A stretch of DNA of 64,000 nucleotides, from contig JBFZAT010000011.1 of the NCBI GenBank assembly GCA_041308845.1, forward strand, positions 9,540 to 73,539, in the 5' to 3' direction. The notes beneath the pieces are model-generated. The model saw only the letters and a program-made list of their open reading frames with translations. It did not search any database and had not been told where the DNA came from. Positions 4,649 through 29,052 of the stretch are shown here, one piece after another. Positions within the stretch are counted from its first letter, which is position 1; every line of letters starts with the position of its first letter. Made by a program: the position numbers and the translations under genes. This DNA comes from Candidatus Omnitrophota bacterium (lineage in GTDB: Bacteria; Omnitrophota; Gorgyraeia; Gygaellales; Profunditerraquicolaceae).

Positions 4649-4658
4649 GGCCACGCAG

Positions 4659-7887: not shown

Positions 7888-7934
7888 AGAAACTTGCGGA
7901 TGGGAATAAATATTTGGTAGGAGGGGTGTTACAT

Positions 7935-10818: not shown

Positions 10819-10820
10819 AT

Positions 10821-14520: not shown

Positions 14521-14521
14521 T

Positions 14522-14980
14522 ATGGACACCGGAGTTGTTGTACAGTTCAAGGATTTAGGATTAATTCTGGTCTTTGCTTTGGCTGCTTGTGGTTCTGCTG
14601 CCGGAGCCGGAGCTGCTGGAATGGCGGCAATTGGGGCCTGGAAAAAGAATTTCGGGCAGAATAAAACCGCCTCTTTTTTATTGGTTGCTCTAGTCGGGGC
14701 GCCCTTAACTCAGACTATTTACGGTAATATTGTTATGACTAAAATGTTTGAGCTGGCGGCTAAGGGGCACTATCTTTGGGGCATCGGAGCTTTCTCTGGC
14801 CTGGCGATCGGGTTATCGGCATATTATCAAGGCAAATGCGCTGCTTGTGCTTGTGATGCGATGGGTGAAACCGGGAAAGGCTTTGGTAATTATCTGGCGG
14901 TTCTAGGGATTGTGGAAACCGTGGCACTTTTTGTGATGGTTTTTACCCTGATTATTCTGGGACAATTTTCCGGGGTTTAA
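14522..14980 (+). CDS. ntpK: V/A-type ATPase proteolipid subunit K (c-subunit)
   Basis: 152 aa, Gly/Ala-rich helical hairpins, conserved Glu in IVETVALF. Confidence 0.8.
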   Translation: MDTGVVVQFKDLGLILVFALAACGSAAGAGAAGMAAIGAWKKNFGQNKTASFLLVALVGAPLTQTIYGNIVMTKMFELAAKGHYLWGIGAFSGLAIGLSAYYQGKCAACACDAMGETGKGFGNYLAVLGIVETVALFVMVFTLIILGQFSGV

Positions 14981-15063
14981 TTCCACAAGAGAGTTTTACT
15001 GAGGTCATTGATTGTTAAAATTGCCGTTGTCCAAACGCAGTTTTTGATAACATTATTTTAACC

Positions 15064-16512
15064 GTGGAAGATATGGGTTTTCGGAAGTATAAAACCTGTT
15101 TTATCAATTTCTTTTTTGTCCCGCTGGTTATTTTTATCATTACCTATTTTGCTTTTCCTAAATTTACCAAGCTCGGCTTTATAATTGATGATATAGATTA
15201 TTTAATGCATCTGGTAATTAGTAGAAGTGATTCTTTAAGCTTTATACATTCATATGCTTTGCGGGGTTTAAGTTTTAAGCCCATGTCTTTAGGGTTGAAC
15301 TGGGTAATTAATTTTTATTTATTTGGGACAAACCCGCACAACTACTATTTATTTAATATAGCAGTACATGCAATTAATTCCTTCCTGGTTTACCTCTTAC
15401 TTAATCTAATATTTAAATTCAGAATGTTAAGTTTTATGGTTAGTCTGTATTATTTAATGCATCCTTTTAATCTAGAAGGCTTAAGCTGGATTAGCGCAGG
15501 TTTTACTTCTCAAAACGTGGTCTTTTTTTCATGCCTTACGCTTATTACCTATTATTTATACATTAAGGGAGCTAAGAAGATTTTTATAGTTTTGTCGTAT
15601 TTATTATACTTCTGTGCTTTCCTATCGAGAGAAGATGTAATTTTATTGCCAGTTTTAATTATTATTCTTTTAATTTTTATTAGGAGGTTGGCTAGAACTA
15701 GAATTCTAGAAGTTTCGGTTTATGCGGGCATAGCTTTGCTTGTATTACTAGGCAGATTTTTATTCCTGTACCCGAATCCCTTTCAACTCTACCGATGGGA
15801 TTTCTTAAATATACAAAATGCACTCTTGAGAAATGAATATTATTTGAATTTGGCCTTCGGTCCATTTATCAAACTTTTCAGTGGGCCAGCGTTTTTAGAG
15901 AACAATATAATCTTGTCAATTATATTGAAACTATCCTTATTTCTATTCCTAGCTGTTTTTGTCGGCCGTAAAATTTATACACATTGGAATTCTGATGAGT
16001 TTGATGAGGCAAAATTACTAGTTTTCGGACTCATTTGGTATCTGGTGCTCGCTGTTCCTTTCAATTTTATGATCGGAGCAGAGTTCTGGCAGAAGCGGTA
16101 TCTATCTTTGTCGATTGTCGGGATACTGATAGCTCAGATCGCGGCAATCGCCATCGTCTGTAAGCCAATCCTAAAATCAATGTTCTACGCCAGTAAATTT
16201 TTATTTCTGTGTTTTTCTTCTAGCCTAATATTAATTTCTCATTATATGATTATTGCGGGGTTCAGTGAGAGCATAATTTCTAAGCATGTTTTGAATTACC
16301 AATATTATGCTGAAAAAATACATTTAGCTTTAAAAAGAAACCCCGGGATTCAAAATATTCAACTAGTCGGATTCCCGGGAGAAGAAAGAGCCTCACAATT
16401 TTTTAAGTTTTTTCCGGAATTTAAGAATATAGAATTTACGGTTATTGAAAATCTGGAAGATGATTCTGATGATAGAGAGGCAGATTTAACCATTGAGCAT
16501 CGAGAGATATAA
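15064..16512 (+). CDS. GT-C-fold integral membrane glycosyltransferase (PMT/ArnT-like), paralog A1
   Basis: Polytopic; first-loop acidic motif (IIDDIDYLMHLV), FG.NP..Y....N...H motif, HPFNLE. Paralog of 21973..23553. Confidence 0.55.
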   Translation: MEDMGFRKYKTCFINFFFVPLVIFIITYFAFPKFTKLGFIIDDIDYLMHLVISRSDSLSFIHSYALRGLSFKPMSLGLNWVINFYLFGTNPHNYYLFNIAVHAINSFLVYLLLNLIFKFRMLSFMVSLYYLMHPFNLEGLSWISAGFTSQNVVFFSCLTLITYYLYIKGAKKIFIVLSYLLYFCAFLSREDVILLPVLIIILLIFIRRLARTRILEVSVYAGIALLVLLGRFLFLYPNPFQLYRWDFLNIQNALLRNEYYLNLAFGPFIKLFSGPAFLENNIILSIILKLSLFLFLAVFVGRKIYTHWNSDEFDEAKLLVFGLIWYLVLAVPFNFMIGAEFWQKRYLSLSIVGILIAQIAAIAIVCKPILKSMFYASKFLFLCFSSSLILISHYMIIAGFSESIISKHVLNYQYYAEKIHLALKRNPGIQNIQLVGFPGEERASQFFKFFPEFKNIEFTVIENLEDDSDDREADLTIEHREI

Positions 16513-16542
16513 TTATTAGAGAAGTTATACAGCATTATTAAA

Positions 16543-18051
16543 GTGGAGTCCGGGGTGGATCAGCTAGGCAGCGGCCGAAATATAAGACTGTGGCTTACAA
16601 GTAAAATGAGCAGCGCGCATATGTTTATCGGCTTTCTTATTTGTTCTTTTATTGCTTTTTTTGCTTGGTTTATTCTACGTAAATTGGCACAAGGGGTATG
16701 GTGTGGTTATGATGGAGCGACATATTCCCAGATTCTTTGGACTACCCTAAACGGGAAGCTGCTGTGGTGTAGTTTTACCGGACTTTCCGGGCTATGCGAT
16801 TTAGGGGTGCATCTTAATTTAACAATATTATTACTTTTACCGTTCTATGCGCTTTTCCCTTTTCCGGCCACATTGGGTATACTTCAGGTATTCTTTTTAG
16901 GCATCGCGGCTATCCCGGTTTATTTAATAGCTAAAGAGAAAATCAATCTGCGAGCTGGCAGATTATTCACGATTTTTTATCTTACCAATAATTTTACGGT
17001 GCAGTCCATTATCGAGGGGTTTCAAACCCGTACTTCAAGTGTGCCGTTTTATTTTTTTGCTTTCTATTTTCTTATTAAGAAAAAATATCTTTGGTTTAAT
17101 TTATTCGTGTTATTATTATGTTTTACCCATGAAATAAATACCCTGTTGGTTTTTATGCTAGGGCTTTATATCGTTTTTGTGCTCCGTAAAATTACTCTGG
17201 GTTTAATAATTTCAATTTTTAGTTTAAGCTGGTTTTTATTAACGATTAAATTTATACAGCCGTTTTTGGGATACGCGGCGCCTTTAGGGGCTTTGCATTT
17301 TCTTGTAGACGGGAAAGTATTATCCGAACCGCTGCAAATCATGCAATATGGTTTTACTCATCCGTTCGATATTTTAGGCAGGGCGTTTTCTTATCCTAAG
17401 CTAGACCATCTCATTAGGTTATTGGGGCCGTTGGGATTTTTACCTTTATTGAGCTTAAAAGAACTTTTAATTGGGCTACCGTTCTTTTTACAAAATTTTA
17501 TCTTAAGCGAACATCTAGTTGGGGTTGAAGTTCCTCGGTACACCATGCCGCTGATTCCTTTTGTGTTTATCTCGGCTATTTACTCAGCAGCCTATCTTTT
17601 CAGGAAACTGAAGACCCGCTGGCTATATTTTGAAATATTGATGGTTGTCTGTTGGGCGTTGTCTACCTATAAGTTTGTTTGGGATCCTACTTATAATCCA
17701 CGGTTTTTACAAGTGCTTGCTCCCTTGGCGATGGAAACTAAAATACATACCGAGGCCCTGAAAGATATTGCCGGATTGGTTCCCGGGGATGCCAGTGTCA
17801 GCGCGGATATCAAAGCTTTCCCTTTTTTAGCCAACCGTTTTCAGCTCTATGATTTACCGTTACACACAGAACAAGCCGAATATATCTTAATCGATCAGAA
17901 ATGCCCAGTGTTTTCGCCAAAACCTTTATTCACACAGGAGCAAGCCCTTGGACATGTTAATCATATATTAATTTCTTCTGATTATGAAATAATTAAAAAA
18001 CAGGATAAGGTGATTTTATTAAAAAGAAAGCAACAAAATAAAATCCCTTAA
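16543..18051 (+). CDS. DUF2079-family integral membrane protein (GT-C-like), paralog B1
   Basis: Motifs GYDGATYSQILWTTLNGKLLW...LGVHLNLTILLLLPFYALFPFPATLGILQV...IAAIPVYLIAKEK fit DUF2079. Close paralog of 23819..25297. Confidence 0.55.
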   Translation: MESGVDQLGSGRNIRLWLTSKMSSAHMFIGFLICSFIAFFAWFILRKLAQGVWCGYDGATYSQILWTTLNGKLLWCSFTGLSGLCDLGVHLNLTILLLLPFYALFPFPATLGILQVFFLGIAAIPVYLIAKEKINLRAGRLFTIFYLTNNFTVQSIIEGFQTRTSSVPFYFFAFYFLIKKKYLWFNLFVLLLCFTHEINTLLVFMLGLYIVFVLRKITLGLIISIFSLSWFLLTIKFIQPFLGYAAPLGALHFLVDGKVLSEPLQIMQYGFTHPFDILGRAFSYPKLDHLIRLLGPLGFLPLLSLKELLIGLPFFLQNFILSEHLVGVEVPRYTMPLIPFVFISAIYSAAYLFRKLKTRWLYFEILMVVCWALSTYKFVWDPTYNPRFLQVLAPLAMETKIHTEALKDIAGLVPGDASVSADIKAFPFLANRFQLYDLPLHTEQAEYILIDQKCPVFSPKPLFTQEQALGHVNHILISSDYEIIKKQDKVILLKRKQQNKIP

Positions 18052-18060
18052 ATAACTAAA

Positions 18061-19167
18061 ATGACTTACGCCAATGACAATACTTTGTATTTAATAAACT
18101 TACTTCAGCAAAAAAAAGACTACCGGAGACTGAACAATTATTTAACGGTTTTAAATGAATTAAAACACAAAATGGTTGTCTGCAAAGGGTACCCGGTTTG
18201 GCTGACCATCGACCCCACTAATATTTGCACGCTTAAATGCCCTTTTTGTTCTACTGGCGCCGGTTTGATTAAACGCGCCCCAGGCATGATGAGTTTTGAA
18301 AATTTTGAAAAAATCATGGATATTCTAGGACCTTACCTTTTGCATATAGATATGCAGAATTGGGGAGAACCCCTGTTGAATAAAGATATCTACCGGATGA
18401 TTGCCCGTGCTAAGCGTTTTGATATTAATATTACTTTAAGCACTAACTTTCAAAATTTTGATGAGCAGGCAGCGGTGGAGATGATTGAATCCGGACTGGA
18501 TAGGTTAATCCTTTCTATTGACGGGGCAAGCCAGGAAACCTATGAAAAACATAAAAGGGGCGGAGACTTTTCTAAGGCCATTAGTAATATAAAAACCCTG
18601 ATTAGCCAGAAAAAACACTTAAAAAGTTTTCTGCCACACGTGATCTGGCAATTCTTAGTTTTTAGGCATAATGAGCATGAGATTGAAATCGCAAAGAAAA
18701 TGGGGGCGGAATTAGGCGTAGATGCAGTAGGAATTAATTCGGCATTTATTGCGGTTAACTCACCAGAATTTAGTGACTGGATCCCGCTGAATAATCAATA
18801 TAGTAAATATGACCTGTCCGGGACTGCACAAACCAACGCAGGTTCAGAGGATTTTCTTAAACCGATTAACCAGGCGGTTTGCAATTGGCTGTGGGAAGGA
18901 ATCGCGATCAATTGGGATATGACCGTTGCTCCTTGTTGTGGAGTCTTTTTGGAACAGGAAGACTTCGGGAGGATTACTGATGCATCTCAATTCCAGCAGC
19001 TCTGGAATAATCAACACTATAAAGTTGCGCGGGAATTTATGCAAAGCAGGCAGACAAAAGATCCGGAAATAAACAATACCTGTGTTCATTGTAATAAAAT
19101 TGGACAGATTAATCTGGATCTCAACCGAGATTTTTGGGCGCAGAGCTTAAAAAGCACAGCGATTTAA
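18061..19167 (+). CDS. Radical SAM protein with Cys-rich SPASM/twitch-like C-terminus
   Basis: CTLKCPFC (CxxxCxxC) at residue ~56, GEPLL, C-terminal APCCG...CVHCNK cysteine cluster. Confidence 0.75.
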   Translation: MTYANDNTLYLINLLQQKKDYRRLNNYLTVLNELKHKMVVCKGYPVWLTIDPTNICTLKCPFCSTGAGLIKRAPGMMSFENFEKIMDILGPYLLHIDMQNWGEPLLNKDIYRMIARAKRFDINITLSTNFQNFDEQAAVEMIESGLDRLILSIDGASQETYEKHKRGGDFSKAISNIKTLISQKKHLKSFLPHVIWQFLVFRHNEHEIEIAKKMGAELGVDAVGINSAFIAVNSPEFSDWIPLNNQYSKYDLSGTAQTNAGSEDFLKPINQAVCNWLWEGIAINWDMTVAPCCGVFLEQEDFGRITDASQFQQLWNNQHYKVAREFMQSRQTKDPEINNTCVHCNKIGQINLDLNRDFWAQSLKSTAI

Positions 19168-19206
19168 ATTTAGCATAGCTTAGTCATCTAAATGAGGTAA
19201 CTTAGA

Positions 19207-20547
19207 ATGAAAATTGTACTGGTTACTTGTCCGGCATACGGCCGTCTGCATCCGCCTTTATCCTTGGCTTGTTTAACCGCAGCTTTAAGACATTGCAGTT
19301 ACCAAGTTACAGCTTTGGATTTAAATATTCAACTTTATAACGAATTTTCGAAAGAACAAAGAGATGTCTACTGGGATTTATTTAACTCACAGCTTTGGCG
19401 GGATAGCAGTATCGTTGAGAGGATAATCTCTAAAGAAAGATTAGAAGCTTGGGTGGAAACTATCTTACAAAAGAATCCACAGGCCGTAGGGTTTTCTGTA
19501 TATAGTTCTAATGAAATTGTCTCTTTAATGCTGGCAGAAAAAATAAAGAAAAAAAATAATGGAATTCAGATTATATTCGGTGGCCCTTTTATCCGTAGGG
19601 ATAATGGAGTTGCCCAATCGATTATTAACAATGCTTATGTTGATTTAGTGGTGATTGGTGAGGGGGAAGGTGCTTTACAGGAAATAGCGCAAGCTTATGA
19701 AGCAAAGAAAGAAATTATGCATTGCCCGGGAGTGCTGCTAAAGTCTGGCGGTCAGATAGTAGACTGCGGTCAGCGGGAGCCGGTTCATGATCTGGACAGC
19801 TTGCCTTTTTCTGATTTTTCAGACTTCCGATTTGAGGACTACGCAGAACCACTAGTGCCTTTGTTGTCTAGCCGGGGTTGTCTTTACAATTGTGGTTTCT
19901 GTAACGAAAAGACCTTCTGGCAAAGTTATCGCTGCCGAAGCGCAGCCAATGTTACCGAGGAAATAAAGCAGCAAATTTTAAAATACGGGATTAATAAGTT
20001 TAGATTTAATGATCTTATGTTAAACGGCAATTTGGAAGAGTTAGAAAAATTTTGTGATTTGATCATTCAGAGTGGGCTTAAAATAACCTGGGGTGGCTAC
20101 ATTTCAGTCCGAAAGATGGGTAGCCAACTGATTAAAAAAATGAAAGAATCTGGGTGCGATTTTCTCTTTATGGGGATTGAAAGCGGTTCACAAAGCATCT
20201 TGAATAAATTTAAGAAAGGCATACAAATAGAAGTAGCCGAAGAGCTATTGCGGGGCTTAAGCCGGGCAGGTATTTCTGCTCACACCGGTTGGATCGTCGG
20301 ATTCCCAGATGAGAGTTCTGTAGATTTTCAACAAACCTTAGATTTTATAAAAAGAAACAGAAGTTATATGAGTTATATTGCCCCCGCCAATATTATGTCG
20401 ATCCAACCCGGGTCTCCGGTTTATCAAGATCCGGTTAAGTTCGGCGTAAAACAAATTATTCATGCTGGGAATTGGGTGGATAATATTACGACTTTAGAAA
20501 TTCGGCAATCCAGGATTAAATATTTCAATAAATATATAGCTTCATAG
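19207..20547 (+). CDS. B12-binding-domain radical SAM enzyme (class B, COG1032-like)
   Basis: N-terminal Rossmann-like B12-binding domain (MKIVLVTCPAYGRL...VGFSVY...IIFGGP), then SSRGCLYNCGFCNE radical SAM motif. Confidence 0.8.
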   Translation: MKIVLVTCPAYGRLHPPLSLACLTAALRHCSYQVTALDLNIQLYNEFSKEQRDVYWDLFNSQLWRDSSIVERIISKERLEAWVETILQKNPQAVGFSVYSSNEIVSLMLAEKIKKKNNGIQIIFGGPFIRRDNGVAQSIINNAYVDLVVIGEGEGALQEIAQAYEAKKEIMHCPGVLLKSGGQIVDCGQREPVHDLDSLPFSDFSDFRFEDYAEPLVPLLSSRGCLYNCGFCNEKTFWQSYRCRSAANVTEEIKQQILKYGINKFRFNDLMLNGNLEELEKFCDLIIQSGLKITWGGYISVRKMGSQLIKKMKESGCDFLFMGIESGSQSILNKFKKGIQIEVAEELLRGLSRAGISAHTGWIVGFPDESSVDFQQTLDFIKRNRSYMSYIAPANIMSIQPGSPVYQDPVKFGVKQIIHAGNWVDNITTLEIRQSRIKYFNKYIAS

Positions 20548-20563
20548 GAAGGTAGAATTAAGA

Positions 20564-21967
20564 ATGAAAATAGCTTTAGTTCAATGTCCGGCCTGGGGCA
20601 GGCTGAATCCTCCATTAGCTTTATCGATGTTGGCTGCTTATTTACGTAGCCAGGGTAAAGAGGTGCTGCTCTTTGATTTAAATAATGATTTATTTCACAA
20701 GGTAAAAGAAGAGGACCGAGCATTGTGGCATTTAGGTAGCGAGTCATTCTGGGAAAATAAGGCTAGTGTTGCCAAATTCGTTTCCGATTATAAAGAATTG
20801 TTGGAAGATTTTGTTAATCAAATCCTGCAGACGGAAACCGGACTTATCGGGTTTTCTATATTTAACAGCTCGACAGAATTAAGTTTATTTATTGCCGAGA
20901 AAATTAAAAAATTAGCTCCTAACAAAACAATAATTTTTGGTGGGCCTAATTGCGCTCCGCATATAAACGGCACCGAAGTGATCAAATCTAGCGCAGTGGA
21001 CATTATGGTGATTGGCGAGGGAGAGTTAGTATTAAATGAAATAATCAACTTGTTTGATAAATATGGTAAGGTCGATTTTTGTAAGGGAACCTGGTTAAAG
21101 AAAGAGGGTAAAGTTATTGATTGCGGGACCGGAGATCTGATTGAAGATTTAAATCTTCTTCCCTTTGCGGATTTTGGAGATTTTTCGTTATCGGCATATA
21201 CTGCTCCATATAGGCTACCAATTTATTTAAGCCGGGGATGTCCGAATCGGTGCGTATATTGCAACGAATCAGTTTTTTGGCGTGGGTATAGACATAGAAG
21301 CGGAGCAAGAGTGTTTCAGGAGTTAAAACACCAGACTGATAAGCATAAAGGAGTGACTCATTTCGATTTCTCCGATTCATTGGTGAATGCTAACCTGAAG
21401 GAATTATCGATTATGGCTGATTTAATTATCGATAACGGCCTTAAAATAACCTGGGGTGGTCAAGCTGTAATTCGTCCTTATATGACTTCTGATTTATTGG
21501 CCAAGCTTAAACAATCTGGTTGTTTGGCTTTAGGTTACGGAATTGAGAGTGGTTCTCAGAAAGTATTAAGCTTGATGCGCAAAGGTTTCACAGTAGAAGA
21601 AGCAGAGCGTGTCATCCGGGATACGCATAAAGCAGGGATAGATGTCGTGACTAATTTTATGTTTGGTTTTCCCGGGGAGACAGATGAAAATTTCGAGGAG
21701 ACACTCCAATTTGTTGCTAAAAATAAAGAGTATATTTCTACCTTAAACCCCAGCCTGGCTTATACAGCTATTGGGGTGGGAACATATCTGCATGCGCATC
21801 CTGAAGAATACGGGATTGATTTAAGCGCCGGTTATCTCTATTGGAGGACCAAAGACGGACAGAATACCTATGAAAAACGGAAAATAAGGTATGAAAGATT
21901 TTGCCGGCAAGCTCTATCTTTGAACATAAATATTAGTTATCCCGTTGATCTTTCAAAGGAAAAATAG
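20564..21967 (+). CDS. B12-binding-domain radical SAM enzyme (class B), tandem paralog
   Basis: MKIALVQCPAWGRLNPPLALSMLAAYL...IIFGGPN...LSRGCPNRCVYCNE; paralog of 19207..20547. Confidence 0.8.
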   Translation: MKIALVQCPAWGRLNPPLALSMLAAYLRSQGKEVLLFDLNNDLFHKVKEEDRALWHLGSESFWENKASVAKFVSDYKELLEDFVNQILQTETGLIGFSIFNSSTELSLFIAEKIKKLAPNKTIIFGGPNCAPHINGTEVIKSSAVDIMVIGEGELVLNEIINLFDKYGKVDFCKGTWLKKEGKVIDCGTGDLIEDLNLLPFADFGDFSLSAYTAPYRLPIYLSRGCPNRCVYCNESVFWRGYRHRSGARVFQELKHQTDKHKGVTHFDFSDSLVNANLKELSIMADLIIDNGLKITWGGQAVIRPYMTSDLLAKLKQSGCLALGYGIESGSQKVLSLMRKGFTVEEAERVIRDTHKAGIDVVTNFMFGFPGETDENFEETLQFVAKNKEYISTLNPSLAYTAIGVGTYLHAHPEEYGIDLSAGYLYWRTKDGQNTYEKRKIRYERFCRQALSLNINISYPVDLSKEK

Positions 21968-21972
21968 ATAAT

Positions 21973-23553
21973 TTGACTATGAATCCAATCATGAAAAACA
22001 GGGTTTCTGTTTATTTATATGTTTGGTTAGGTTTTTTTGTATTGTTTTATGGTGGTTGTTTGATTTATTCAACTTATTTTGGAGGTTTTTTTGTATTTGA
22101 TTATGGCAACTATTTACATGCATTAGTCAATAGAAATAATATTACAACCGTTTTTAGTTCACTTTTTTTGACGCCCTGGAGCTTTAGGATTATAGAAAAT
22201 TTACAATTTTTTCTATGCTTCAATCTATTCGGCCTTAATCCAACAGGATATCTGGCAGTGGGAATGTTGACTTTTGCCGCAGGGATCGTTCTTGTATATT
22301 ATTGCGTATTTACTCTTTCTAAGAGCAGGGCGATAAGTTTTATCAGCTCTTTTTTGATGGTTATCCATCCACTAAATTTAGAAAAATTTGGGTTGATTTG
22401 CCCGGCCCATCTAGAATTTGTTTTTTTCGCAGCCGCACTTCTATCTTATTCATTATCTTTACTCAAAAATAGAAAAGTAAATATTTTTTATATTCTTGCT
22501 TTGGTGTTTTATATTGCCGCTATTTTTACAAGGGTGAATACTCTCATCTTTCCATTATTTATTGTAGCTTATTGTATGTTATTTGAACGGCCTTTAAGTT
22601 TAATAAAAATCATCAAAAGTACAGCAGGATTCTTTATTATTACAGGTGTGTATTTGTGGCTGCGTTTATTTGTCTTGAGCTTAACGCCCGCTCAACAGAC
22701 GCTTTATACTTTTGACTTTTTTAATTTAAGCAATATATTGCATAACTATAAGATGTTTAGTATCTTGGCACTTAAAATAGTTACTAATCCATATAAAATA
22801 ATCTGCACTTGGGATATCTATCTGCATAATCTGTTAAGTGCAGATAAAGCAGTAGTTCTATTTTTTGTGATCATAATTTTATATTTTTCTATATTAGTAA
22901 GAAAAAAAGATTTTTTCGGTCCCGCGTTAGTTAAGACCCGGTTTAAATTATTTTTGCTAGGGTGTTTATGGTATTCGTTAGGGTTATTGCCTTTTTTATT
23001 TTTTGCGGATGATTCGCACACTGCGATTCGTCATTTAGCGCTGTCGACTATTGGTTCGTCAATGGCTATTGCGATAGTGGTGATCGAAGTTTATCGCAGG
23101 ATTTATGCTGCTAGTAGGTATCTGGCCAATGGCATTATATTTCTTTTTCTAATTAATTTTTTTTATTCTACCTACCTGATCTCCAGGAATGTCTTTATAG
23201 ATAGAAATTATGATTATACTTATATAATTCGACATGGTTTTTTTAATAAGTCAAAACTAGAGGCCATCAATAAAACTTATCCTATTTTTCCTCCCCGAAG
23301 CAAAATATATTTTATTAACTTTCATTGGGCCTCAAGGATACCAGAATTTATAAAAATATTTTATAAAGATGAGTCTTTTAAAACATTTTTGTTGACTGAG
23401 CAAAAATTGAAAGAAGTAAGCTTAAACAGTGGGGAGAATATATTTGTATTTATGTCGCTTAAGAATGGCCAGGTATCTGATTTAACCGCTGAATATAATC
23501 TTCAAACCGGATTTATACCTTTAAGTCAGTTCAAAGCAGAGCTGGAGCAATGA
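21973..23553 (+). CDS. GT-C-fold integral membrane glycosyltransferase (PMT/ArnT-like), paralog A2
   Basis: FDYGNYLHALV, NLFGLNPTGY, VIHPLNLEKFGL motifs shared with 15064..16512; polytopic. Confidence 0.55.
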   Translation: MTMNPIMKNRVSVYLYVWLGFFVLFYGGCLIYSTYFGGFFVFDYGNYLHALVNRNNITTVFSSLFLTPWSFRIIENLQFFLCFNLFGLNPTGYLAVGMLTFAAGIVLVYYCVFTLSKSRAISFISSFLMVIHPLNLEKFGLICPAHLEFVFFAAALLSYSLSLLKNRKVNIFYILALVFYIAAIFTRVNTLIFPLFIVAYCMLFERPLSLIKIIKSTAGFFIITGVYLWLRLFVLSLTPAQQTLYTFDFFNLSNILHNYKMFSILALKIVTNPYKIICTWDIYLHNLLSADKAVVLFFVIIILYFSILVRKKDFFGPALVKTRFKLFLLGCLWYSLGLLPFLFFADDSHTAIRHLALSTIGSSMAIAIVVIEVYRRIYAASRYLANGIIFLFLINFFYSTYLISRNVFIDRNYDYTYIIRHGFFNKSKLEAINKTYPIFPPRSKIYFINFHWASRIPEFIKIFYKDESFKTFLLTEQKLKEVSLNSGENIFVFMSLKNGQVSDLTAEYNLQTGFIPLSQFKAELEQ

Positions 23554-23818
23554 TTTTTCACCAAGTGCGCGCCAGTATTAGTTAAAAAATTTAATCAAAT
23601 GATTACCGCATTAAGCTCCCTTTAGTAGGGATTTAATGCTTAGTTTAATTTCTTGTGAGCTATTAATCCTGATTTTAAAACTTATAGATTGAGAAAAAAG
23701 CAACTAAATAAACGTAAAGCGGCTATAGATATTTCTGGCGATAAAATGATTCACTTCTCTCAGTAAGAATATTTACTAATATAATAAAGATAAGGATAAC
23801 GATTACAAGGTAGTCGTA

Positions 23819-25297
23819 ATGGCAAGTAAACTAGAGGGGCTTGAGATGAGCAGAAGTGCTTGTGATAAAAACATGGTATTGCTTATTGTCTTTATTTTTG
23901 CTTTTATTGTATTTTCTTCCTGGCTCACTTTTAATAAGTTTGAGCACAATATGTGGGACGGCCATGATCAAGGAGCGTATTGTCAAATGTTATGGACCAC
24001 TATGCATGGAAAATTATTCTGGTGTAGCGTAACCGGAATTAATGGAGCCTGTGACCTAGCGATACATATGAATGTTTTGATGTTTTTGTTAATTCCTGTT
24101 TATTGGATTTTTAATTTTCCCGTTACGCTTAACATTATCCAGGTGCTTTATCTTGGTATAGCAGCTATCCCGGTTTATCTTATCGCTAAAGAAAAAATGA
24201 GTAGTAAGGTAGGCCTGTTGTTTGCTGTTTTCTATCTTACCAATAATTTTACGATACAATCAATAATTGAAGGTTTTCAACCCAGGAGCATGGCTGTTCC
24301 GCTTTCGCTATTTGGATTTTATTTCCTCATCAAAAATAAATACTTTCTTACTAGTTTATTTATGTGTCTATTAGCCCTTTCCCAGGAGTCAAACAGCATG
24401 TTATTAATTACCTTCGGTATTTACATAATTTTGATTCAAAGACAAATATTACTCGGAGCGCTCATTTCATTTTTTGGTCTGGGATGGTTCATGCTTACAA
24501 TAAACATATTACAGCCCCATTTTGGTGTTTCCAACCCGTTAGGGGTTTTACAATTTGACGCGGCAGGAACAATTTTAGTTTCACCGCTCGAGATTATTCG
24601 CTATTTTATCTTTCATCCAATAGAATTTTTTCAGCGGGCGCTTTCTTATCCGAAGCTGGATTATTTTGTTAGATTGTTTGCGCCATTAGCCTTCCTGTCT
24701 TTATTTAGCTTAAAAGAACTTTTAATCGCTCTGCCGGTTTTTTTACAGAACTTTATTCTCGGTGGAGACCGTTTTATTAGACCTGAAAACCCCAGGCATA
24801 CAATGCCGTTACTTCCTTTTATCTTAATCTCGGCGATTTATTCGGCCAGCTATTTTTATAGTAAACCAAAGTTACGCTGGAAATATATCTGGGTCTTCTT
24901 AGTAATTTGCTGGGGAATATCCACATACAAATTTGTTTGGGATTATAACTATAACCAGCGTTTTTTAAAAGCTTTGGCCCCCGTGACCCAAGAAGAGAAA
25001 ATTCATAGGCAAGCATTAAGGAAAATTGTAAAACTTGTCCCTGCAGACGCAAGTATCTGCGGCGATTTAAAAGCATTTCCCTTTCTGGCCAATCGTTTCA
25101 CTTTTTACGATATCCCCTTTCATATAGAAGATACCGACTATGTTTTAATTGATACTAAAGATCCTAATTTTTCTGCGAAACCAATAAAATCAAGAGAAGA
25201 GTGTCTTGAAATTATAGCAGAAACTTTACGCTCCACCGATTATACGGTTATTAAAGAGGAAGATGGCCTAGTCCTCTTAAAAAGAATAATTAGATAG
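23819..25297 (+). CDS. DUF2079-family integral membrane protein (GT-C-like), paralog B2
   Basis: WDGHDQGAYCQMLWTTMHGKLFWCSVTG...IAAIPVYLIAKEK...FYLTNNFTIQSIIEGFQPRS, near-identical blocks to 16543..18051. Confidence 0.55.
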   Translation: MASKLEGLEMSRSACDKNMVLLIVFIFAFIVFSSWLTFNKFEHNMWDGHDQGAYCQMLWTTMHGKLFWCSVTGINGACDLAIHMNVLMFLLIPVYWIFNFPVTLNIIQVLYLGIAAIPVYLIAKEKMSSKVGLLFAVFYLTNNFTIQSIIEGFQPRSMAVPLSLFGFYFLIKNKYFLTSLFMCLLALSQESNSMLLITFGIYIILIQRQILLGALISFFGLGWFMLTINILQPHFGVSNPLGVLQFDAAGTILVSPLEIIRYFIFHPIEFFQRALSYPKLDYFVRLFAPLAFLSLFSLKELLIALPVFLQNFILGGDRFIRPENPRHTMPLLPFILISAIYSASYFYSKPKLRWKYIWVFLVICWGISTYKFVWDYNYNQRFLKALAPVTQEEKIHRQALRKIVKLVPADASICGDLKAFPFLANRFTFYDIPFHIEDTDYVLIDTKDPNFSAKPIKSREECLEIIAETLRSTDYTVIKEEDGLVLLKRIIR

Positions 25298-25633: not shown

Positions 25634-26150
25634 AAAGGAATTTAAGATAATTACCTTGAGCCCTCAGGAGAACAGATATATTGAATCGTTTAACGGCAAA
25701 TTATGGGATGAATTGTTGAGCAGAGAGATCTTTGAAACATGCGTGAGGGCGAGGTTTTGGAGCTTAAGTGGCAGGATATTGACATTAGGAGAAATATAAC
25801 TACCCATATGGCACTAAGAACGTAGAGAAACGAGAGGTTCCTATGGATGAAGTTGTCCAGAAGGTTATTATAGGCGTTCTTAAACATCCAGATTCGTAAT
25901 ATATCTTCTGCAACAATGATGAAAACCATATTGAGATATTAATAAATCATTCTTTACAGCTGTTAAGAAAGCGGGTATAATTGACTTCCGCATACATAGT
26001 CTTCGCCATACTTTATTTCGTATTTGGTGATGTCTGGCGTTGGCTTTAATGCGATGAGAGAATTGTTAAGGCACAAGTTACCGTAATGACTCTATGGCAT
26101 AGCCATTTAAAAACGAGCGGTTGATGTTTTAGGACAGCGGGTAGTCTTCG
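25634..26150 (+). pseudogene. Degraded mobile-element remnants: DDE transposase (rve) C-terminal fragment plus frameshifted phage-type tyrosine integrase
   Basis: Translation of 25634-25739 gives ...SPQENRYIESFNGKLWDELLSREIFET, the conserved rve-family C-terminal motif. Downstream frames give ELKWQDIDI..., REVPMDEVVQKVI, IDFRIHSLRHTLF and ELLRHKLP, which are integrase box I/II-like. They are interrupted by stops and frameshifts. Confidence 0.6.
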
Positions 26151-26233: not shown

Positions 26234-26310
26234 TGGGCGATTAGCTCAGTTGGTTAGAGCGTCTGATTTACATTCAGAAGGTCAGGGGTTCAACTCCTCT
26301 ATCGCCCACC
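26234..26310 (+). tRNA. tRNA-Val (anticodon TAC), CCA encoded
   Basis: GGGCGAT...ATCGCCC acceptor, D-arm AGCTCAGTTGGTTAGAGC, anticodon stem TCTGA/TCAGA with loop TTTACAT, T-loop GGTTCAACTCC, terminal ACCA. Confidence 0.8.
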
Positions 26311-26386
26311 ATTAAATACTTAATAAATAGTAGACTTTTTTGAGATAAGAAAGTATAATAAGTTCCAAAAATTTTCAATAGGTTTT

Positions 26387-26465
26387 GGGGTCGTAGCTTA
26401 GCCTGGCTTAAAGCGCCTCCCTGTCACGGAGGAGATCGCGAGTCCGAATCTCGTCGGCCCCGCCA
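26387..26465 (+). tRNA. tRNA-Asp (anticodon GTC), CCA encoded
   Basis: Acceptor GGGGTCG/CGGCCCC (one G-U pair), anticodon stem CCTCC/GGAGG with loop CTGTCAC, T-arm GCGAG-TCCGAAT-CTCGT, terminal GCCA. Confidence 0.7.
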
Positions 26466-26473
26466 GTAATCTA

Positions 26474-26663: not shown

Positions 26664-27389
26664 GTGAAGACTTATGTTCTTATTCCGACGTTCAATGAGA
26701 TTGAGAACATCGTAAGATTAATAAACGAAATTCTGGATTTAGGCATCGAAGGCCTATATATTCTTATCGTAGATGATGATTCTCCTGATGGTACCGGGAA
26801 ATTGACCCAGGAGTTATTCAAAAATGATTCCCGAGTTGAGGTGATGATTAGAGCCGGCCAGCGCGGTAGAGGAGAGGCCGGGGTATTCGGGTTCCGGCAG
26901 GCTTTAAATAAAGGAGCAGATTATATTATTGAAATGGACGCTGATTTTTCCCATCAGCCTAGGCATATCCCGCAATTTCTAGCGGCAATAAAGCAAAATG
27001 ATGTAGTTATAGGGTCGCGTTTTATACTCGGAGGGGAGGATCGCGACCGGGGTTGGCTTCGGCAAACCATTACGAAACTAGCCGGAGTTTACACAAGATC
27101 AATCTTGGGCTTAAGAATACACGATGTATCTTCGGGTTTTCGCTGTTTTAGAAAAGCAGCGTTAGAAAAGGTTGATTTAAGCAGTTTGGTTTCTACGGGG
27201 CCTTCTATTGTTTTAGAATTACTGTATAGGATTATTTTAAGCGGAGCTCGAGTTAAGGAGATACCGATTATTTTTGCCGATAGGAGGCAAGGTAAAACCA
27301 AATTGAAATATGTTATTCTATTTGAAACCTTGATTATGGTATTAAGGTTAAAAAAGCTGAAGGGCACAAAACAGTTACTCAAGCAATGA
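26664..27389 (+). CDS. GT2 polyprenol-phosphate sugar synthase (DPM1/ArnC-like), short form
   Basis: VLIPTFNEIENI...LYILIVDDDSPDGT...IEMDADFSH; GT2 DxD architecture, 241 aa, GTG start. Confidence 0.7.
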   Translation: MKTYVLIPTFNEIENIVRLINEILDLGIEGLYILIVDDDSPDGTGKLTQELFKNDSRVEVMIRAGQRGRGEAGVFGFRQALNKGADYIIEMDADFSHQPRHIPQFLAAIKQNDVVIGSRFILGGEDRDRGWLRQTITKLAGVYTRSILGLRIHDVSSGFRCFRKAALEKVDLSSLVSTGPSIVLELLYRIILSGARVKEIPIIFADRRQGKTKLKYVILFETLIMVLRLKKLKGTKQLLKQ

Positions 27390-27426: not shown

Positions 27427-29052
27427 ATGCAAACCCGAATTAATAGTTTATTAAAGTTTTTGGTGGGGTGCTTGACCATCCAACGGGTTGTTTTTGTATT
27501 GATCTTAATATATTTTTTGCTAGCCGCTTTGACCGGAATTACCACTTTAGGCTTAAGCCATGATGAAGGGCAAAGAGGGTTAGAAACTATAGAGATACTC
27601 GAATTTAAACATTTCCCCCTGATGAGAGAATTCTACTGCGGGGCAGTAATCTCCTATCTACAAATTCCATTATTTTTAATCTTCGGCGCTACGGTATTTG
27701 CCATTAGGTTTACCCAGGTCATCTTTTCATTGGGGAGTATTGTTTGTCTTTATTATGTGGGGCAAAGATGGTTCAACCATTATATAGGTCTTCTTGCCGC
27801 CTTACTGTTGAGCTTAAATCCTGTTTTTATCTGGGCGACCAGATTGGGAGCAGAAAGAGAAGAAATACTCCAGATTTTTCTTTTTTGGTTGGGCTTAGCG
27901 TTAGTCCAACTTTACCTAGATAAAAAAAGAAAAAAGTATTTATACTCTGGTTTTTTTACCTTCGGGTTGGCTTTAAGCGCAAAAATCATGTTTTTAGGAT
28001 ATGCCCTGGGGATGATTGCTACTTTACTTTTTATGGGTAAACCGGCCGCTAATTTTATTAAAAATAAAATCTTTTATAAAAAATATACATTATTAGTTTC
28101 CGGAATAATGTTTTTAGCCGGTAGCTCCTTAGTTATCATTTACAATATCGCCTCCGGAGGCCAAACAATAACTAAATTATGGAACAGTTTATTTATTAAG
28201 GGCGCCGGAGCAGTGCGCGGGGCTAATTTTGGCATTAATAACTTGGATTTTATTAATAATCTTGCCCACAGATTATCGGACTTTAAGTCACTGGTCACCG
28301 GTGGGATTTTTAGTAATTACCATAATTTTTTTAATCTGGTAATTTTGGGTTTTTCTTTATTAATAGTTATAGGTTATTTACTGCTCACTAAACAAAAACT
28401 GTTATCCCAAAAGAAAATTATTTTTTTACTGGGGACCTACTTTTTTTTATTTTTGGGGACCTCCTTTACGCCTAGAGAGTATGACCACGCAAACATTATA
28501 ATTTTGCTGCCGGTAACCCAGATTATCGTAGCGATCGCAATATTTTCTTTAAAAAACATCTTGGCAAAAAATGTATTATTATCAATGCTCGTTCCCCTCT
28601 GTGCCTTATTACCGCTAGTTTCCAATGAAGTCGGCGCCTATGGCCGTTATTTACTTACTTTGGAAAACACTGGCGGTAGAGGCCAATCTGCTTGTGCGGT
28701 ATATGAGCTGGTGGATTATATTAATAGAAATAATATTAAGAAAAATGTATTTTCGGTAGGAGAATGGGGGCCAATCGGAAATGTTAATTTTCTGCTCAAG
28801 CGCAGAGTGGTTCTGCCACTTCCTTATTTTCGGTATTGGCAGGAAGAACCGGATATAAAATTTGAAACTTTTATTAAACAGTACCCGAAAGCTTATTTTA
28901 TCAGGGTGATTGGTTTTGATTCCGAAAACGGCAACTGCGATTTTAAGTTCCTTTCGGAATCGGCATTGAGAAAAAATAAGAAAATATCTGAAGTGAGGGT
29001 ATTTAAGAACCGGGCAGGCGAGGCCTGCTACGGGCTTTATCAATTAGAGTAA
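27427..29052 (+). CDS. GT-C-fold membrane glycosyltransferase (ArnT/PMT-like, polyprenol-P-sugar dependent), paralog C1
   Basis: Polytopic; LSHDEGQRG first-loop motif, REEILQIFLFW, conserved C-terminal globular region; paralog of 32935..34584. Confidence 0.55.
   Translation: MQTRINSLLKFLVGCLTIQRVVFVLILIYFLLAALTGITTLGLSHDEGQRGLETIEILEFKHFPLMREFYCGAVISYLQIPLFLIFGATVFAIRFTQVIFSLGSIVCLYYVGQRWFNHYIGLLAALLLSLNPVFIWATRLGAEREEILQIFLFWLGLALVQLYLDKKRKKYLYSGFFTFGLALSAKIMFLGYALGMIATLLFMGKPAANFIKNKIFYKKYTLLVSGIMFLAGSSLVIIYNIASGGQTITKLWNSLFIKGAGAVRGANFGINNLDFINNLAHRLSDFKSLVTGGIFSNYHNFFNLVILGFSLLIVIGYLLLTKQKLLSQKKIIFLLGTYFFLFLGTSFTPREYDHANIIILLPVTQIIVAIAIFSLKNILAKNVLLSMLVPLCALLPLVSNEVGAYGRYLLTLENTGGRGQSACAVYELVDYINRNNIKKNVFSVGEWGPIGNVNFLLKRRVVLPLPYFRYWQEEPDIKFETFIKQYPKAYFIRVIGFDSENGNCDFKFLSESALRKNKKISEVRVFKNRAGEACYGLYQLE

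Follow-up and report, generated by a model that had tools for sequence, protein, structure and literature searches.

Membrane glycosyltransferase-type genes interleaved with radical SAM genes in a variable island of an uncultivated Omnitrophota bacterium

Introduction

In ArnC/ArnT and GtrB/GtrC-type periplasmic glycosylation, among the described systems closest to the locus studied here, a GT2 polyprenyl-phosphate-sugar synthase is paired with a single GT-C membrane transferase, and no radical SAM (rSAM) enzyme takes part. Other GT-C proteins that invite comparison are the protein O-mannosyltransferases of the PMT family (GT39), the TMTC-type proteins with TPR repeats, and the oligosaccharyltransferases STT3/PglB/AglB. 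Among rSAM enzymes, GenK, Fom3 and CysS (class B), BtrN (twitch), AprD4 and BlsE have sugars or nucleotide-activated small molecules as substrates, in secondary metabolism and not in GT-C-dependent envelope assembly. SPASM domains mostly occur in peptide maturases, and Tes, Mss, Hbs, Grs, HpnJ and HpnR are precedents for lipid modification. The hopanoid side-chain pathway HpnI/HpnJ/HpnK comprises a GT2, a B12-type rSAM and a YdjC deacetylase. To our knowledge, rSAM tailoring has not been characterised experimentally in any GT-C envelope pathway, and a full-text literature search brought up no precedent.

Here we describe an island of an uncultivated Candidatus Omnitrophota bacterium (GCA_041308845.1) in which six GT-C-type genes accompany five rSAM enzymes. 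Membrane glycosyltransferases repeatedly interleaved with oxygen-sensitive radical enzymes represent a conserved pairing whose chemistry is so far undescribed. The window, the whole 64,000-nucleotide stretch analysed, covers positions 9,540 to 73,539 of contig JBFZAT010000011.1, and all coordinates below refer to it.

Results

Organization and genomic setting of the island

Seven ORFs occupy 15064-25297, all on the + strand and exactly where an initial annotation had placed them (Table 1). The gaps between them measure 5-39 bp, save one of 265 bp, and a terminator scan gave no convincing internal terminator in the block; both features fit co-transcription. As the annotation had also noted, 15064-25297 is free of nucleotide-sugar, Wzx/Wzy and ABC genes. 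Its seven-gene limits proved too narrow, however: the block is not self-contained, GT2 genes lie just downstream, and similar genes run to 37438, so that the block forms the first half of a 22.6 kb island (15064-37438). The second half reads GT2, PMT_2, B12-rSAM, GT2, SPASM-rSAM, PMT_2, GT2, AsnB-like, which amounts to three GT2s, two clear PMT_2 GT-Cs, two rSAMs and one EPS-type amidotransferase, while the first half holds no GT2 gene. Glycosyltransferase and rSAM genes are interleaved in both halves. The island yielded neither a flippase nor a gene for nucleotide-sugar synthesis. Hydrophobicity analysis indicates that the rSAM enzymes are soluble and the A and B proteins polytopic.

The slot that the island fills is bordered by the V-ATPase operon on one side and by a conserved gene on the other, and contains integrase/IS debris together with two tRNAs. 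This slot is variable between related genomes: in the related MAG L001 it spans 7.1 kb and contains neither rSAM nor DUF2079 genes.

Table 1. Features of the island, with positions in the window
Feature	Position	Strand	Description	Evidence
A1	15064..16512	+	Polytopic membrane protein, ~11 hydrophobic segments; divergent PMT_2-like putative GT-C	ORF, relatives
B1	16543..18051	+	DUF2079 membrane protein, predicted GT-C fold, C-terminal alpha/beta domain, conserved Asp57 after TM1	DUF2079 2e-50
SPASM1	18061..19167	+	Soluble rSAM, C-terminal SPASM/twitch-type auxiliary-cluster domain	Radical_SAM 5e-18, SPASM 7e-8
B12a	19207..20547	+	Class-B rSAM, B12-binding domain	B12-binding 2.7e-12, Radical_SAM 1.5e-14
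B12b	20564..21967	+	Class-B rSAM	B12-binding + Radical_SAM; 41% identical to B12a
A2	21973..23553	+	Polytopic membrane protein, distant A1 paralogue	26% identity to A1
B2	23819..25297	+	DUF2079 membrane protein, predicted GT-C fold, old B1 paralogue	DUF2079 9.5e-62
Mobile-element remnants	25650..26090	+	IS3-type transposase fragment and frameshifted tyrosine-integrase C-terminus, degraded	Short ORF translations, conserved motifs by eye
tRNA-Val(TAC), tRNA-Asp(GTC)	26235..26465	+	tRNA pair	ARAGORN, Rfam
Terminator-like hairpin	26473-26499		3' of tRNA pair	Terminator scan
GT2a	26664..27389	+	Small soluble GT2	Glycos_transf_2 1.4e-28
PMT2a	27427..29052	+	PMT_2-family GT-C membrane transferase	PMT_2 1.6e-11, 45 bits vs cut-off 26
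B12c	29092..30555	+	Third class-B rSAM	B12-binding 3.7e-19, Radical_SAM 7.6e-22
GT2b	30552..31562	-	GT2 with C-terminal hydrophobic segments	Only minus-strand gene of island
SPASM2	31761..32900	+	Second SPASM/twitch-type rSAM	Radical_SAM 2.9e-18, SPASM 1.3e-14
PMT2b	32935..34584	+	PMT_2-family GT-C membrane transferase	PMT_2 7.8e-9
GT2c	34599..35519	+	ArnC/PgfS-like GT2, putative polyprenyl-phosphate-sugar synthase, C-terminal TM segment	
AsnB-type	35543..37438	+	Glutamine amidotransferase	Asn_synthase 1.7e-98

An ancient duplication of two membrane proteins

The pairs A1-B1 and A2-B2, taken in the annotation for a mirror duplication, are in fact a direct repeat with the same strand and order. 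The proposed paralogy itself is borne out by the alignments: A1 and A2 share 26% identity over 442 aa (E 2e-21, far beyond chance), B1 and B2 54% over 464 aa, the two neighboring B12-rSAMs are also paralogous, and every quoted motif is present (DDIDYLMHLV/FDYGNYLHALV, LFG.NP, HP(F/L)NLE and IAAIPVYLIAKEK). The two A-B pairs are paralogues of long standing, and in other metagenomes each has a separate orthologue. The pair appears to be an old functional unit that was duplicated long ago and then diverged, probably towards different donor or acceptor specificities.

Profile searches recovered the DUF2079, Radical_SAM plus SPASM, and B12-binding plus Radical_SAM domains expected among the seven proteins, but not PMT_2 in A1 or A2. 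Since neither protein has a direct Pfam or NCBIfam match, their GT-C label rests on relatives. Only eight close homologues of A1 exist in 5.8e9 proteins (43-51% identical, precomputed PF13231). PMT_2 matches seven of the nine members of the A-family alignment, which consists of seven homologues plus A1 and A2 (best E 5.9e-9). The DDIDY motif of A1 follows TM1, D42 is invariant in the alignment, and A2 retains this Asp together with the FG.NP and HP.N motifs. The family profile reaches a very large family, in which five of ten sampled matches carry a weak-to-moderate PMT_2 domain and several have TPR repeats; compared with PMT2a and PMT2b by hhalign, it gave no significant match. The AF2 model of A1 is of low confidence (pLDDT 46). 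A1 and A2 are putative GT-C-type transferases, resembling PMT and TMTC-type proteins in the PMT_2 link and the acidic residue after TM1, but differing from them in having no direct PMT_2 match, MIR domain or fused TPR repeats.

For B1 and B2, the GT-C assignment is supported by predicted structure. In Foldseek, the B1 model matches STT3/PglB/AglB best, with probability 1.0 and TM-scores of 0.36-0.51, showing at the level of the model that DUF2079 has a GT-C fold. The likeness covers the multi-TM core and the C-terminal extracytoplasmic domain. However, B1 is much smaller (~500 aa), no WWDYG-type motif was seen, and sequence similarity is not detectable, a PDB profile search giving no match at E<=10. 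D57, conserved in DUF2079, is an acidic residue after TM1, as is D42 in the A family.

Radical SAM enzymes outside the curated families

The rSAM motif is CTLKCPFC at residue 56 in SPASM1 and CLYNCGFC at residue 225 in B12a. The annotation had labeled the third gene as rSAM/SPASM; the Pfam match stands, but SPASM1 and SPASM2 (24% identical) have only five and four C-terminal Cys, and in our reading their domains are twitch-like or incomplete, not full versions of SPASM. SPASM1 has 797 homologues at E<=1e-10, and those with a named source come from Omnitrophota or Elusimicrobiota. B12c is 28-29% identical to B12a and B12b. Orthologues of B12a and B12b in contig L002 are 63% and 76% identical, respectively, and L004 contains a homologue 44% identical to B12b.

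None of the island rSAMs reaches a curated NCBIfam cut-off, the best match of SPASM1 scoring 106 bits against 380. All scores fall far below the cut-offs, as for PqqE (49/381 bits), NirJ (46/515) and MftC (44.5/265), and support the enzymes' belonging to no known cofactor pathway, as far as profile scores can tell. Of the lipid-related families, HpnJ is among the better matches (113-126/578 bits), with Tes at 30/450 bits and the ladderane-associated B12 rSAM at a sub-threshold 82-111 bits; residues 45-179, the generic rSAM core, account for all of the likeness to Tes/GDGT-MAS. The top matches of B12a, B12b and B12c are RiPP C-methyltransferases (ApyD, 159 bits; TIGR03975, 154-158 bits against 282). 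Among solved structures in the PDB, SkfB comes closest to SPASM1, with a score of just 28.7 bits. The sugar-tailoring rSAMs of antibiotic pathways share the enzyme classes, B12-binding and twitch-like, and CysS, AprD4 and BlsE appear among the weak PDB matches, but at 23-39 bits this similarity is of superfamily level only.

Glycosyltransferases and amidotransferase of the second half

Two GT2 plus PMT_2 pairs lie downstream of the seven-gene block, recalling ArnC/ArnT and GtrB/GtrC. Two of the three GT2s resemble polyprenyl-phosphate-sugar synthases at sub-threshold scores, each beside a PMT_2 GT-C: GT2c aligns over its full length with the ArnC model (180 bits, residues 3-304 against positions 7-312 of 316; equivalog cut-off 529), and the best NCBIfam matches of GT2a, which resembles DPM1/AglJ/PpgS-type synthases, are AglJ, dolichyl-phosphate hexose transferase and PpgS, all below cut-off. 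In contrast to those systems, the island GT2s reach no equivalog cut-off and no ArnE/F or GtrA flippase was found. PMT2a has ~12 hydrophobic segments and is 27% identical to PMT2b. The AsnB-type protein is most like the XrtA/PEP-CTERM EPS-locus amidotransferase (TIGR03108, 627 bits against 817).

Recurrence in other genomes

At least six other Omnitrophota contigs carry DUF2079, SPASM-rSAM, B12-rSAM and GT genes together, which supports the view that the association is not an accident of one genome. The block recurs as an association of genes, but its order is not fixed. Contig ERZ1426844 reads A-B-SPASM-B12-x-B12. L002 reads SPASM-B12-B12a-B12b-A2-GDSL-A1-B1, where the A2 orthologue (47% identical) lies directly 3' of the B12b orthologue and the small ORFs represent pieces of B12b, A and B genes. 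ERZ1426817 reads, in order, a B12 gene, a 511-aa protein that lacks annotation but resembles A2 in size and position, a DUF2079 protein (P0020) 85% identical to B2, a TPR/GDSL gene and an A1-like gene. In L004, L005 and L009, DUF2079 is found with an NTP_transferase/GT2 fusion, B12-rSAM and GT2; start and stop coordinates abut in L009, with no intergenic gap, and those in L004 and L005 either abut or share a few bases. The neighborhood on L004 and L009 also includes a carbamoyltransferase, a pair of SPASM-rSAM genes, one more B12-rSAM, a polytopic 618-aa protein with a CBM_4_9 domain, a methyltransferase and YdjC, with GT9 in L004 as well, and L009 has a PMT_2-GT2-AsnB trio upstream of the rSAM/DUF2079 genes, separated from them by two small genes. 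Four more pairs of DUF2079 and SPASM1 homologues have matching longest-contig sizes (41347, 23540, 16345 and 172648), suggesting that they share contigs. A distant DUF2079 gene in L010 sits in a classic Bac_transf/Wzy_C/GT2/GT9/ManC polysaccharide cluster.

Discussion

Because a precedent for rSAM tailoring in a GT-C pathway is lacking, our model rests on guilt by association. We give an even chance to a system for envelope glycoconjugates in which radical tailoring takes place in the cytoplasm. On the cytoplasmic face, GT2a, GT2c and probably GT2b would transfer sugars from nucleotide sugars to polyprenyl phosphate. The five soluble, oxygen-sensitive rSAMs and the AsnB-type amidotransferase would tailor those sugars or the activated forms that precede them; methylation of unactivated carbons is the most plausible role of the three B12-binding enzymes, and oxidation, epimerisation or dehydration that of the two twitch-like ones. 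The lipid-linked sugars would then be flipped across the membrane, and A1, B1, A2, B2, PMT2a and PMT2b would attach them periplasmically to a glycan (LPS/EPS) or surface-protein acceptor. A glycosylation system with radical tailoring had been proposed initially, and its membrane GT-C-type transferases are retained here; we infer the rSAM substrate and chemistry, including any action on a glycan or lipid carrier, as well as the direction of the pathway and the acceptor, from the gene neighborhood. The sub-threshold similarity of B12a and B12b to RiPP C-methyltransferases as their best matches, the usual occurrence of SPASM domains in peptide maturases, an island in which no flippase or nucleotide-sugar synthesis gene was found, and a first half that has no GT2 count against this mechanism.

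The rSAMs could instead act in the cytoplasm as maturases of a surface protein or peptide, by C-methylation, thioether or C-C crosslinks, the same protein being O-glycosylated after export by the PMT/TMTC-like GT-Cs. The RiPP-like B12 matches, the SPASM domains and SkfB point this way, as do the many PMT_2 plus TPR proteins reached by the A-family profile, whose common TPR repeats would suit a protein acceptor, the TPR and GDSL/TPR genes adjoining A-type genes in L001, L003 and ERZ1426817, and a 1531-aa beta-helix protein beside an Elusimicrobiota homologue. We nevertheless consider this unlikely: all scores stay under the curated cut-offs (158 bits against 282 for TIGR03975), the short gaps of the block leave no space for a precursor gene and the small ORFs of L002 are gene fragments, and the ~45-55 residues N-terminal to the rSAM core of SPASM1 and SPASM2 are too short for an RRE/PqqD-like domain and have no such Pfam match. 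The conserved neighbors, moreover, handle sugars (NTP_transferase/GT2, YdjC, GT9, carbamoyltransferase and the CBM_4_9-bearing membrane protein).

Modification of membrane lipids or of the polyprenyl carrier by methylation, C-C bridging or cyclisation, with the GT-Cs glycosylating the product, seems distinctly improbable. The GT2, B12-rSAM, GT2, methyltransferase and YdjC set of L004 and L009 recalls HpnI/HpnJ/HpnK, and the island rSAMs show sub-threshold likeness to HpnJ (123-126 bits), the ladderane-associated enzyme and Tes. Hbs and Mss homologues have also been reported in Omnitrophota MAGs (bioRxiv 10.1101/2023.10.20.563219). However, the scores are 4- to 15-fold under the family cut-offs, the Tes likeness does not extend beyond the generic core, and the annotated ORFs of the window include no YdjC, hopanoid, squalene-hopene cyclase, polyprenyl synthase or glycerolipid gene.

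Least probable of all is that the rSAM and GT-C genes are independent cargo piling up in a recombination-prone hypervariable slot, as its size difference to L001, its integrase, IS and tRNA content, the differing gene orders and the glycosyltransferase-rich hypervariable loci reported in Omnitrophota (2026 preprint, 10.64898/2026.06.07.730766) might suggest, since orthologous sets such as SPASM1 + B12a + B12b + A2 or SPASM1 + B12 + A-type + DUF2079 recur jointly, at 44-76% identity, on six or more independent contigs, with very short gaps, coordinates that abut or overlap in L004, L005 and L009, and rSAMs interleaved among the GT genes throughout the island.

Organization of the seven-gene block

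The ORF listing confirmed, exact to the coordinate, the seven consecutive + strand genes called in the initial annotation, which are separated in order by 30, 9, 39, 16, 5, and 265 bp. The proposed domains were borne out by Pfam: DUF2079 in the membrane proteins B1 and B2, Radical_SAM plus SPASM in the third gene (SPASM1), and B12-binding plus Radical_SAM in the fourth and fifth (B12a and B12b). Each radical SAM enzyme (rSAM) has one CxxxCxxC motif and no predicted transmembrane (TM) segment, and the A and B proteins contain about 7-12 hydrophobic segments. The claimed paralogy is real, with 26% identity over 442 residues between A1 and A2 (E 2e-21) and pairwise identities of 54% between B1 and B2 and 41% between B12a and B12b. 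The A1-B1 and A2-B2 pairs form a direct repeat on one strand, not the mirror arrangement first described, and the boundary set at 25297 comes too early, as the same gene types go on downstream.

A recent tandem duplication of B1 and B2 was rejected. B1 is 72% identical to a DUF2079 protein encoded downstream of an A1-type gene on another contig, and B2 is 85% identical to one downstream of a 511-aa protein of A2-like size, compared to only 52% between B1 and B2 in the same alignment. As each is closer to its orthologue elsewhere than to the other, the A-B pair was duplicated long ago, with both copies kept. The promoter scan gave promoter-like sites within the shuffled-sequence range and does not define the operon structure, and terminator-like sites were rarer than expected. 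An identical copy of SPASM1 is found on a 2.6 kb contig of GCA_041308905.1.

Features of the island, its flanks, and the comparison loci
Sequence	Feature	Coordinates	Strand	Description
Window	A1	15064-16512	+	482 aa, polytopic membrane protein
Window	B1	16543-18051	+	502 aa, DUF2079
Window	SPASM1	18061-19167	+	368 aa, SPASM-type rSAM
Window	B12a	19207-20547	+	446 aa, B12-rSAM
Window	B12b	20564-21967	+	467 aa, B12-rSAM
Window	A2	21973-23553	+	526 aa, polytopic membrane protein
Window	B2	23819-25297	+	492 aa, DUF2079
Window	IS3/integrase debris	25650-26090		mid-island
Window	tRNA-Val	26235-26311
Window	tRNA-Asp	26387-26465
Window	GT2a	26664-27389	+	GT2
Window	PMT2a	27427-29052	+	PMT_2
Window	B12c	29092-30555	+	third B12-rSAM
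Window	GT2b	30552-31562	-	GT2
Window	SPASM2	31761-32900	+	second SPASM-type rSAM
Window	PMT2b	32935-34584	+	PMT_2
Window	GT2c	34599-35519	+	GT2
Window	AsnB-like	35543-37438	+	amidotransferase
Window	variable slot	14980-37562		22.6 kb
Window	504-aa gene	37562-39076
Window	645-aa gene	41775-43712
Window	ATP-grasp/rSAM genes	47478-50656
L001	variable slot	4112-11262		7.1 kb
L004	618-aa gene	6471-8327		C-terminal CBM_4_9
L004	GT2 fusion to YdjC	9849-14969
L005	611-aa gene	912-2747		counterpart of 618-aa gene
L007	rSAM gene run	4572-16633		Elusimicrobiota
L009	618-aa gene	12837-14693		C-terminal CBM_4_9
L009	GT2 fusion to YdjC	16187-21101

Predicted GT-C fold of the DUF2079 proteins

Both B proteins match DUF2079 (PF09852; Pfam cut-off 28.2 bits) over model positions 9-459 of 459, B1 with 172.7 bits (2e-50) and B2 with 210 bits (9.5e-62). 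The AlphaFold model of B1, built from 55 diverse DUF2079 sequences, is confident (pLDDT 93, pTM 0.91), and in a Foldseek search of the PDB its top 19 matches are GT-C enzymes with a probability of 1.0, among them STT3, PglB, AglB, ALG9, and DPY19. The multi-TM module of B1 is superposable on these solved GT-C enzymes. Asp57, located in the first extracytoplasmic loop directly after TM1 (helix 24-50), is conserved in 90% or more of these 55 sequences. In GT-C enzymes the catalytic acid is located in the loop after TM1, and by analogy Asp57 may be catalytic in DUF2079. Based on the B1 model, its top Foldseek matches, and the conservation of Asp57 after TM1, this widespread family is a GT-C-fold family. 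No mention of DUF2079 was found in the literature searched, and no report of its GT-C fold is known from the searchable literature. The B1-subfamily profile gave no PDB match at E<=10, and a scan of species-representative genomes with the DUF2079 subfamily alignment found no more than 2 loci. Small GT2 genes are located next to DUF2079 in the comparison loci L004, L005, L009, L010, and L011.

A1 and A2 as candidate PMT_2-like proteins

The initial annotation had described A1 and A2 as GT-C proteins, but neither sequence itself matches a Pfam or NCBIfam family, even at E<=1. In a search of 5.8 billion clusters, close homologues of A1 numbered only eight. PMT_2 is matched by seven of the nine members of the A-family alignment (best E 5.9e-9), all seven being close A1 homologues. 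The A-family profile reaches 43,794 cluster representatives, only 8 of them at E<=1e-30; among ten sampled relatives, four have weak-to-moderate PMT_2 matches, three of these together with TPR repeats, and a fifth has TPR repeats only. An Asp in the 'DDIDY' loop, which follows TM1, is the same in every sequence of the alignment, A2 included. Comparison of the A profile with the island proteins PMT2a and PMT2b by hhalign was not significant (E 0.038 and 0.17), no PDB match was obtained at E<=10, and the AlphaFold model of A1, from the 9-sequence alignment, has a pLDDT of 46, too low for a fold search. Judged from its sequences, the A family is probably a divergent PMT_2-like GT-C family.

The radical SAM enzymes lie outside characterized subfamilies

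B12a, B12b, and, in the second half of the island, B12c belong to class B, with N-terminal B12-binding and Radical_SAM matches above the Pfam cut-off and one CxxxCxxC motif each in the rSAM core. All their NCBIfam scores are far below cut-off, which places them in no characterized class B subfamily. The best scores in bits (cut-off in parentheses) are 159 (750) for ApyD, 158 (282) for the RiPP methylase TIGR03975, 133 (600) for PhpK, 126 (578) for HpnJ, 118 (481) for BchE, 111 (360) for the ladderane rSAM, 102 (360) for Mmp10, and 65 (650) for HpnR.

The SPASM label stands as a Pfam match but not as the full seven-cysteine motif that binds two auxiliary clusters: with only 5 and 4 C-terminal cysteines in SPASM1 and SPASM2, respectively, their auxiliary domain would rather be twitch-like or a partial SPASM. 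SPASM1 was rejected as PqqE (PQQ; 49 bits, cut-off 381), NirJ (heme d1; 46 bits, cut-off 515), MftC (mycofactocin; 44.5 bits, cut-off 265), and AhbD (heme; 49.5 bits, cut-off 500), and SPASM2 as AhbD (111 bits, cut-off 500). No equivalog cut-off was reached for the PQQ, heme d1, mycofactocin, heme AhbC/D, and MoaA pathways, and no partner genes of the pqq, mft, nir, or ahb type occur among the island neighbors. The initial annotation was to be refuted if the rSAMs belonged to a known cofactor pathway, and these results speak against such membership. SPASM1 also scores 106 bits against the tungsten-enzyme maturase model (NCBIfam cut-off 380), and it was rejected as Tes, the enzyme of tetraether/membrane-spanning lipids (30 bits, cut-off 450); its match to GDGT-MAS in the PDB (26.6 bits) is confined to the rSAM core. 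The closest solved structures match the rSAMs over the generic core only, with 23-39 bits.

A threshold of E<=1e-10 gives 797 members for the SPASM1 family, which reaches into Elusimicrobiota. In L007 and L008, from that phylum, a 44%-identical homologue is located inside an unbroken series of 11 or more rSAM genes of SPASM, B12-binding, and plain types, 3' of a gene for a 1531-aa beta-helix/NosD protein.

A partly conventional second half

GT2c gives a full-length alignment to the ArnC model (180 bits). GT2a is similar to AglJ, dolichyl-phosphate-hexose, and PpgS synthases, and the amidotransferase is nearest to the XrtA/PEP-CTERM EPS amidotransferase, all of these scores falling below the equivalog cut-offs. 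From the likeness of GT2c to ArnC and of GT2a to AglJ and PpgS, beside PMT_2 genes, the second half contains two pairs of a putative polyprenyl-phosphate-sugar synthase and a GT-C enzyme. This GT2 plus GT-C logic is already known, and the seven-gene block belongs to a larger glycan island that is hypervariable and in part conventional.

Between 14 and 38 kb the GC content is 0.32-0.40, compared to 0.42-0.47 in most flanking windows. Upstream of the island are the housekeeping genes carAB, fpg, and pyrK/D/F, followed by a V-type ATPase operon whose end is at 14980. A degraded fragment of an IS3-type transposase ('ESFNGKLWDELLSREIF') and the C-terminal remnant of a frameshifted tyrosine integrase lie directly 5' of tRNA-Val and tRNA-Asp, which suggests past integration or recombination events.

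A hypervariable slot and recurrence in other genomes

Named homologues of the island genes are from Candidatus Omnitrophota MAGs. In L001, from a related MAG, the slot between V-ATPase subunit K (88% identical to that of the window) and the downstream 504-aa gene (76%) holds just four genes, two TPR and two A-type, and neither rSAM nor DUF2079; the DUF2079/rSAM genes of this MAG are on another contig, L004. The slot is a hypervariable surface locus, and the position of the island within it suggests surface diversification, e.g., under phage or host-contact pressure.

Gene order at loci with related genes (identity to the window protein in parentheses)
Locus	Order
ERZ1426844	pyr genes, A, B, SPASM, B12, 175-aa gene, B12, 429-aa gene (cut by contig end)
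L002	SPASM1 (70%), 727-aa B12-rSAM, B12a (63%), B12b (76%), A2 (47%), GDSL, A1 (51%), B1 N-terminus
ERZ1426817	B12, unannotated 511-aa protein of A2-like size, DUF2079, TPR/GDSL, A1-like
L004 and L009	carbamoyltransferase, 352-aa gene, SPASM, SPASM1 orthologue (67%), B12, 618-aa CBM_4_9 protein, DUF2079, NTP_transferase/GT2 fusion, B12, GT2, methyltransferase, YdjC
L004, beyond YdjC	second methyltransferase, GT9

L005 starts just upstream of a 611-aa counterpart of the 618-aa protein and, judged by similarity and ORF sizes, has the same DUF2079-to-GT2 stretch. The start and stop coordinates of this stretch abut with zero intergenic gap in L009, and abut or overlap by a few bases in L004 and L005. 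A PMT_2-GT2-AsnB trio is located upstream of the rSAM genes in L009, with two small genes between; its position beside rSAM/DUF2079 genes ties together the two halves of the window island. For four further pairs of DUF2079 and SPASM1 homologues, the matching size of the longest contig listed suggests shared contigs. In L010, the gene for a DUF2079 protein 32% identical to B1 belongs to a typical polysaccharide cluster that lacks rSAMs (Bac_transf, two Wzy_C, four GT2, two GT9, ManC).

The 618-aa polytopic protein occupies the position of A. Its DD, FG.N, RE, and PF motifs are in register with the A family, and hhalign gives an E of 0.044 for the L004 protein, which is suggestive only of a relationship.

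A possible system for radical-tailored glycoconjugates

To our knowledge, radical SAM chemistry is undescribed in GT-C-dependent envelope glycan assembly. A literature search on rSAMs with GT-C enzymes, Elusimicrobia, O-antigen, or EPS found nothing relevant, and no described counterpart was found for GT-C transferase genes interspersed this densely, and in conserved fashion, with class B and twitch-type rSAMs. Five rSAMs and six GT-C-type transferases, conserved yet repeatedly reshuffled, point to novel chemistry of a surface sugar or its acceptor.

The best-supported reading, with chances about even in our judgment, is that the island encodes an envelope glycoconjugate system with radical tailoring. 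The analysis shows the domains, the GT-C fold of B, the paralogy, the recurrence of the gene families, and the location in a variable slot. As to the substrate, chemistry, and acceptor of such a system, we infer that GT2 enzymes would put sugars onto polyprenyl phosphate, and that the soluble rSAMs and the amidotransferase, working in the cytoplasm, would modify the sugar or an activated precursor of it. The tailored product would then be flipped across the membrane, where the six GT-C-type enzymes would pass it to a glycan or protein acceptor. The CBM_4_9 module directly upstream of DUF2079 in L004 and L009, on the membrane protein in A's position, favors a carbohydrate acceptor, and the TPR repeats in A-profile relatives favor a protein. 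A wider version is doubtful but conceivable: in Omnitrophota, an uncultivated, largely anaerobic phylum, and perhaps Elusimicrobiota, dedicated B12-dependent and twitch-type rSAMs would remodel lipid-linked or nucleotide-activated envelope-glycan sugars before GT-C/DUF2079 enzymes install them outside the membrane. Possible remodeling includes C-methylation, branching, epimerization, and ring rearrangement. Glycoconjugates tailored in this way by radical chemistry would form a new class at the cell surface, and DUF2079 would gain its first functional assignment. The locus supplies small, soluble, defined enzymes (SPASM1, B12a, and B12b) and candidate donor synthases (GT2a and GT2c).

Maturation of a protein or peptide coupled to O-glycosylation, with which the TPR relatives of A would be compatible, is rather unlikely. 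The spacing of 5-39 bp plus one gap of 265 bp leaves no room for a RiPP precursor gene in the block; the gap holds only chance ORFs of at most 30 aa, none common to L002, where the small ORFs are gene fragments. PqqD/RRE-like domains have no Pfam match, and the N-terminal extensions of SPASM1 and SPASM2 (about 45-55 aa) are below RRE length.

Modification of a lipid or carrier seems improbable. The NTP_transferase/GT2 fusion, B12-rSAM, GT2, methyltransferase, and YdjC deacetylase genes of L004 and L009 resemble the hopanoid HpnI/HpnJ/HpnK logic and by analogy may serve a ring rearrangement of a lipid-linked amino sugar; the B12-rSAMs of the window itself score only 113-126 bits against the HpnJ model (cut-off 578). 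Least probable is a coincidental cargo of the hypervariable slot, a location that would allow it, set against the recurrence of these gene combinations at other loci.

Genes downstream of the island

The 504-aa protein has one N-terminal hydrophobic segment and no Pfam or NCBIfam match; it is 73-76% conserved and syntenic in L001 and L003, upstream of a tRNA_bind-domain gene. The 645-aa protein, conserved in L001, has a PilZ domain at its N-terminus and a weak GH76-like region; it could be a glycan-related protein that responds to c-di-GMP. Further downstream lies a lysine-2,3-aminomutase-like rSAM gene, preceded by a tandem pair of D-Ala-D-Ala-ligase-like ATP-grasp genes; together they may form a beta-lysine or peptide-ligation module with no relation to the island.
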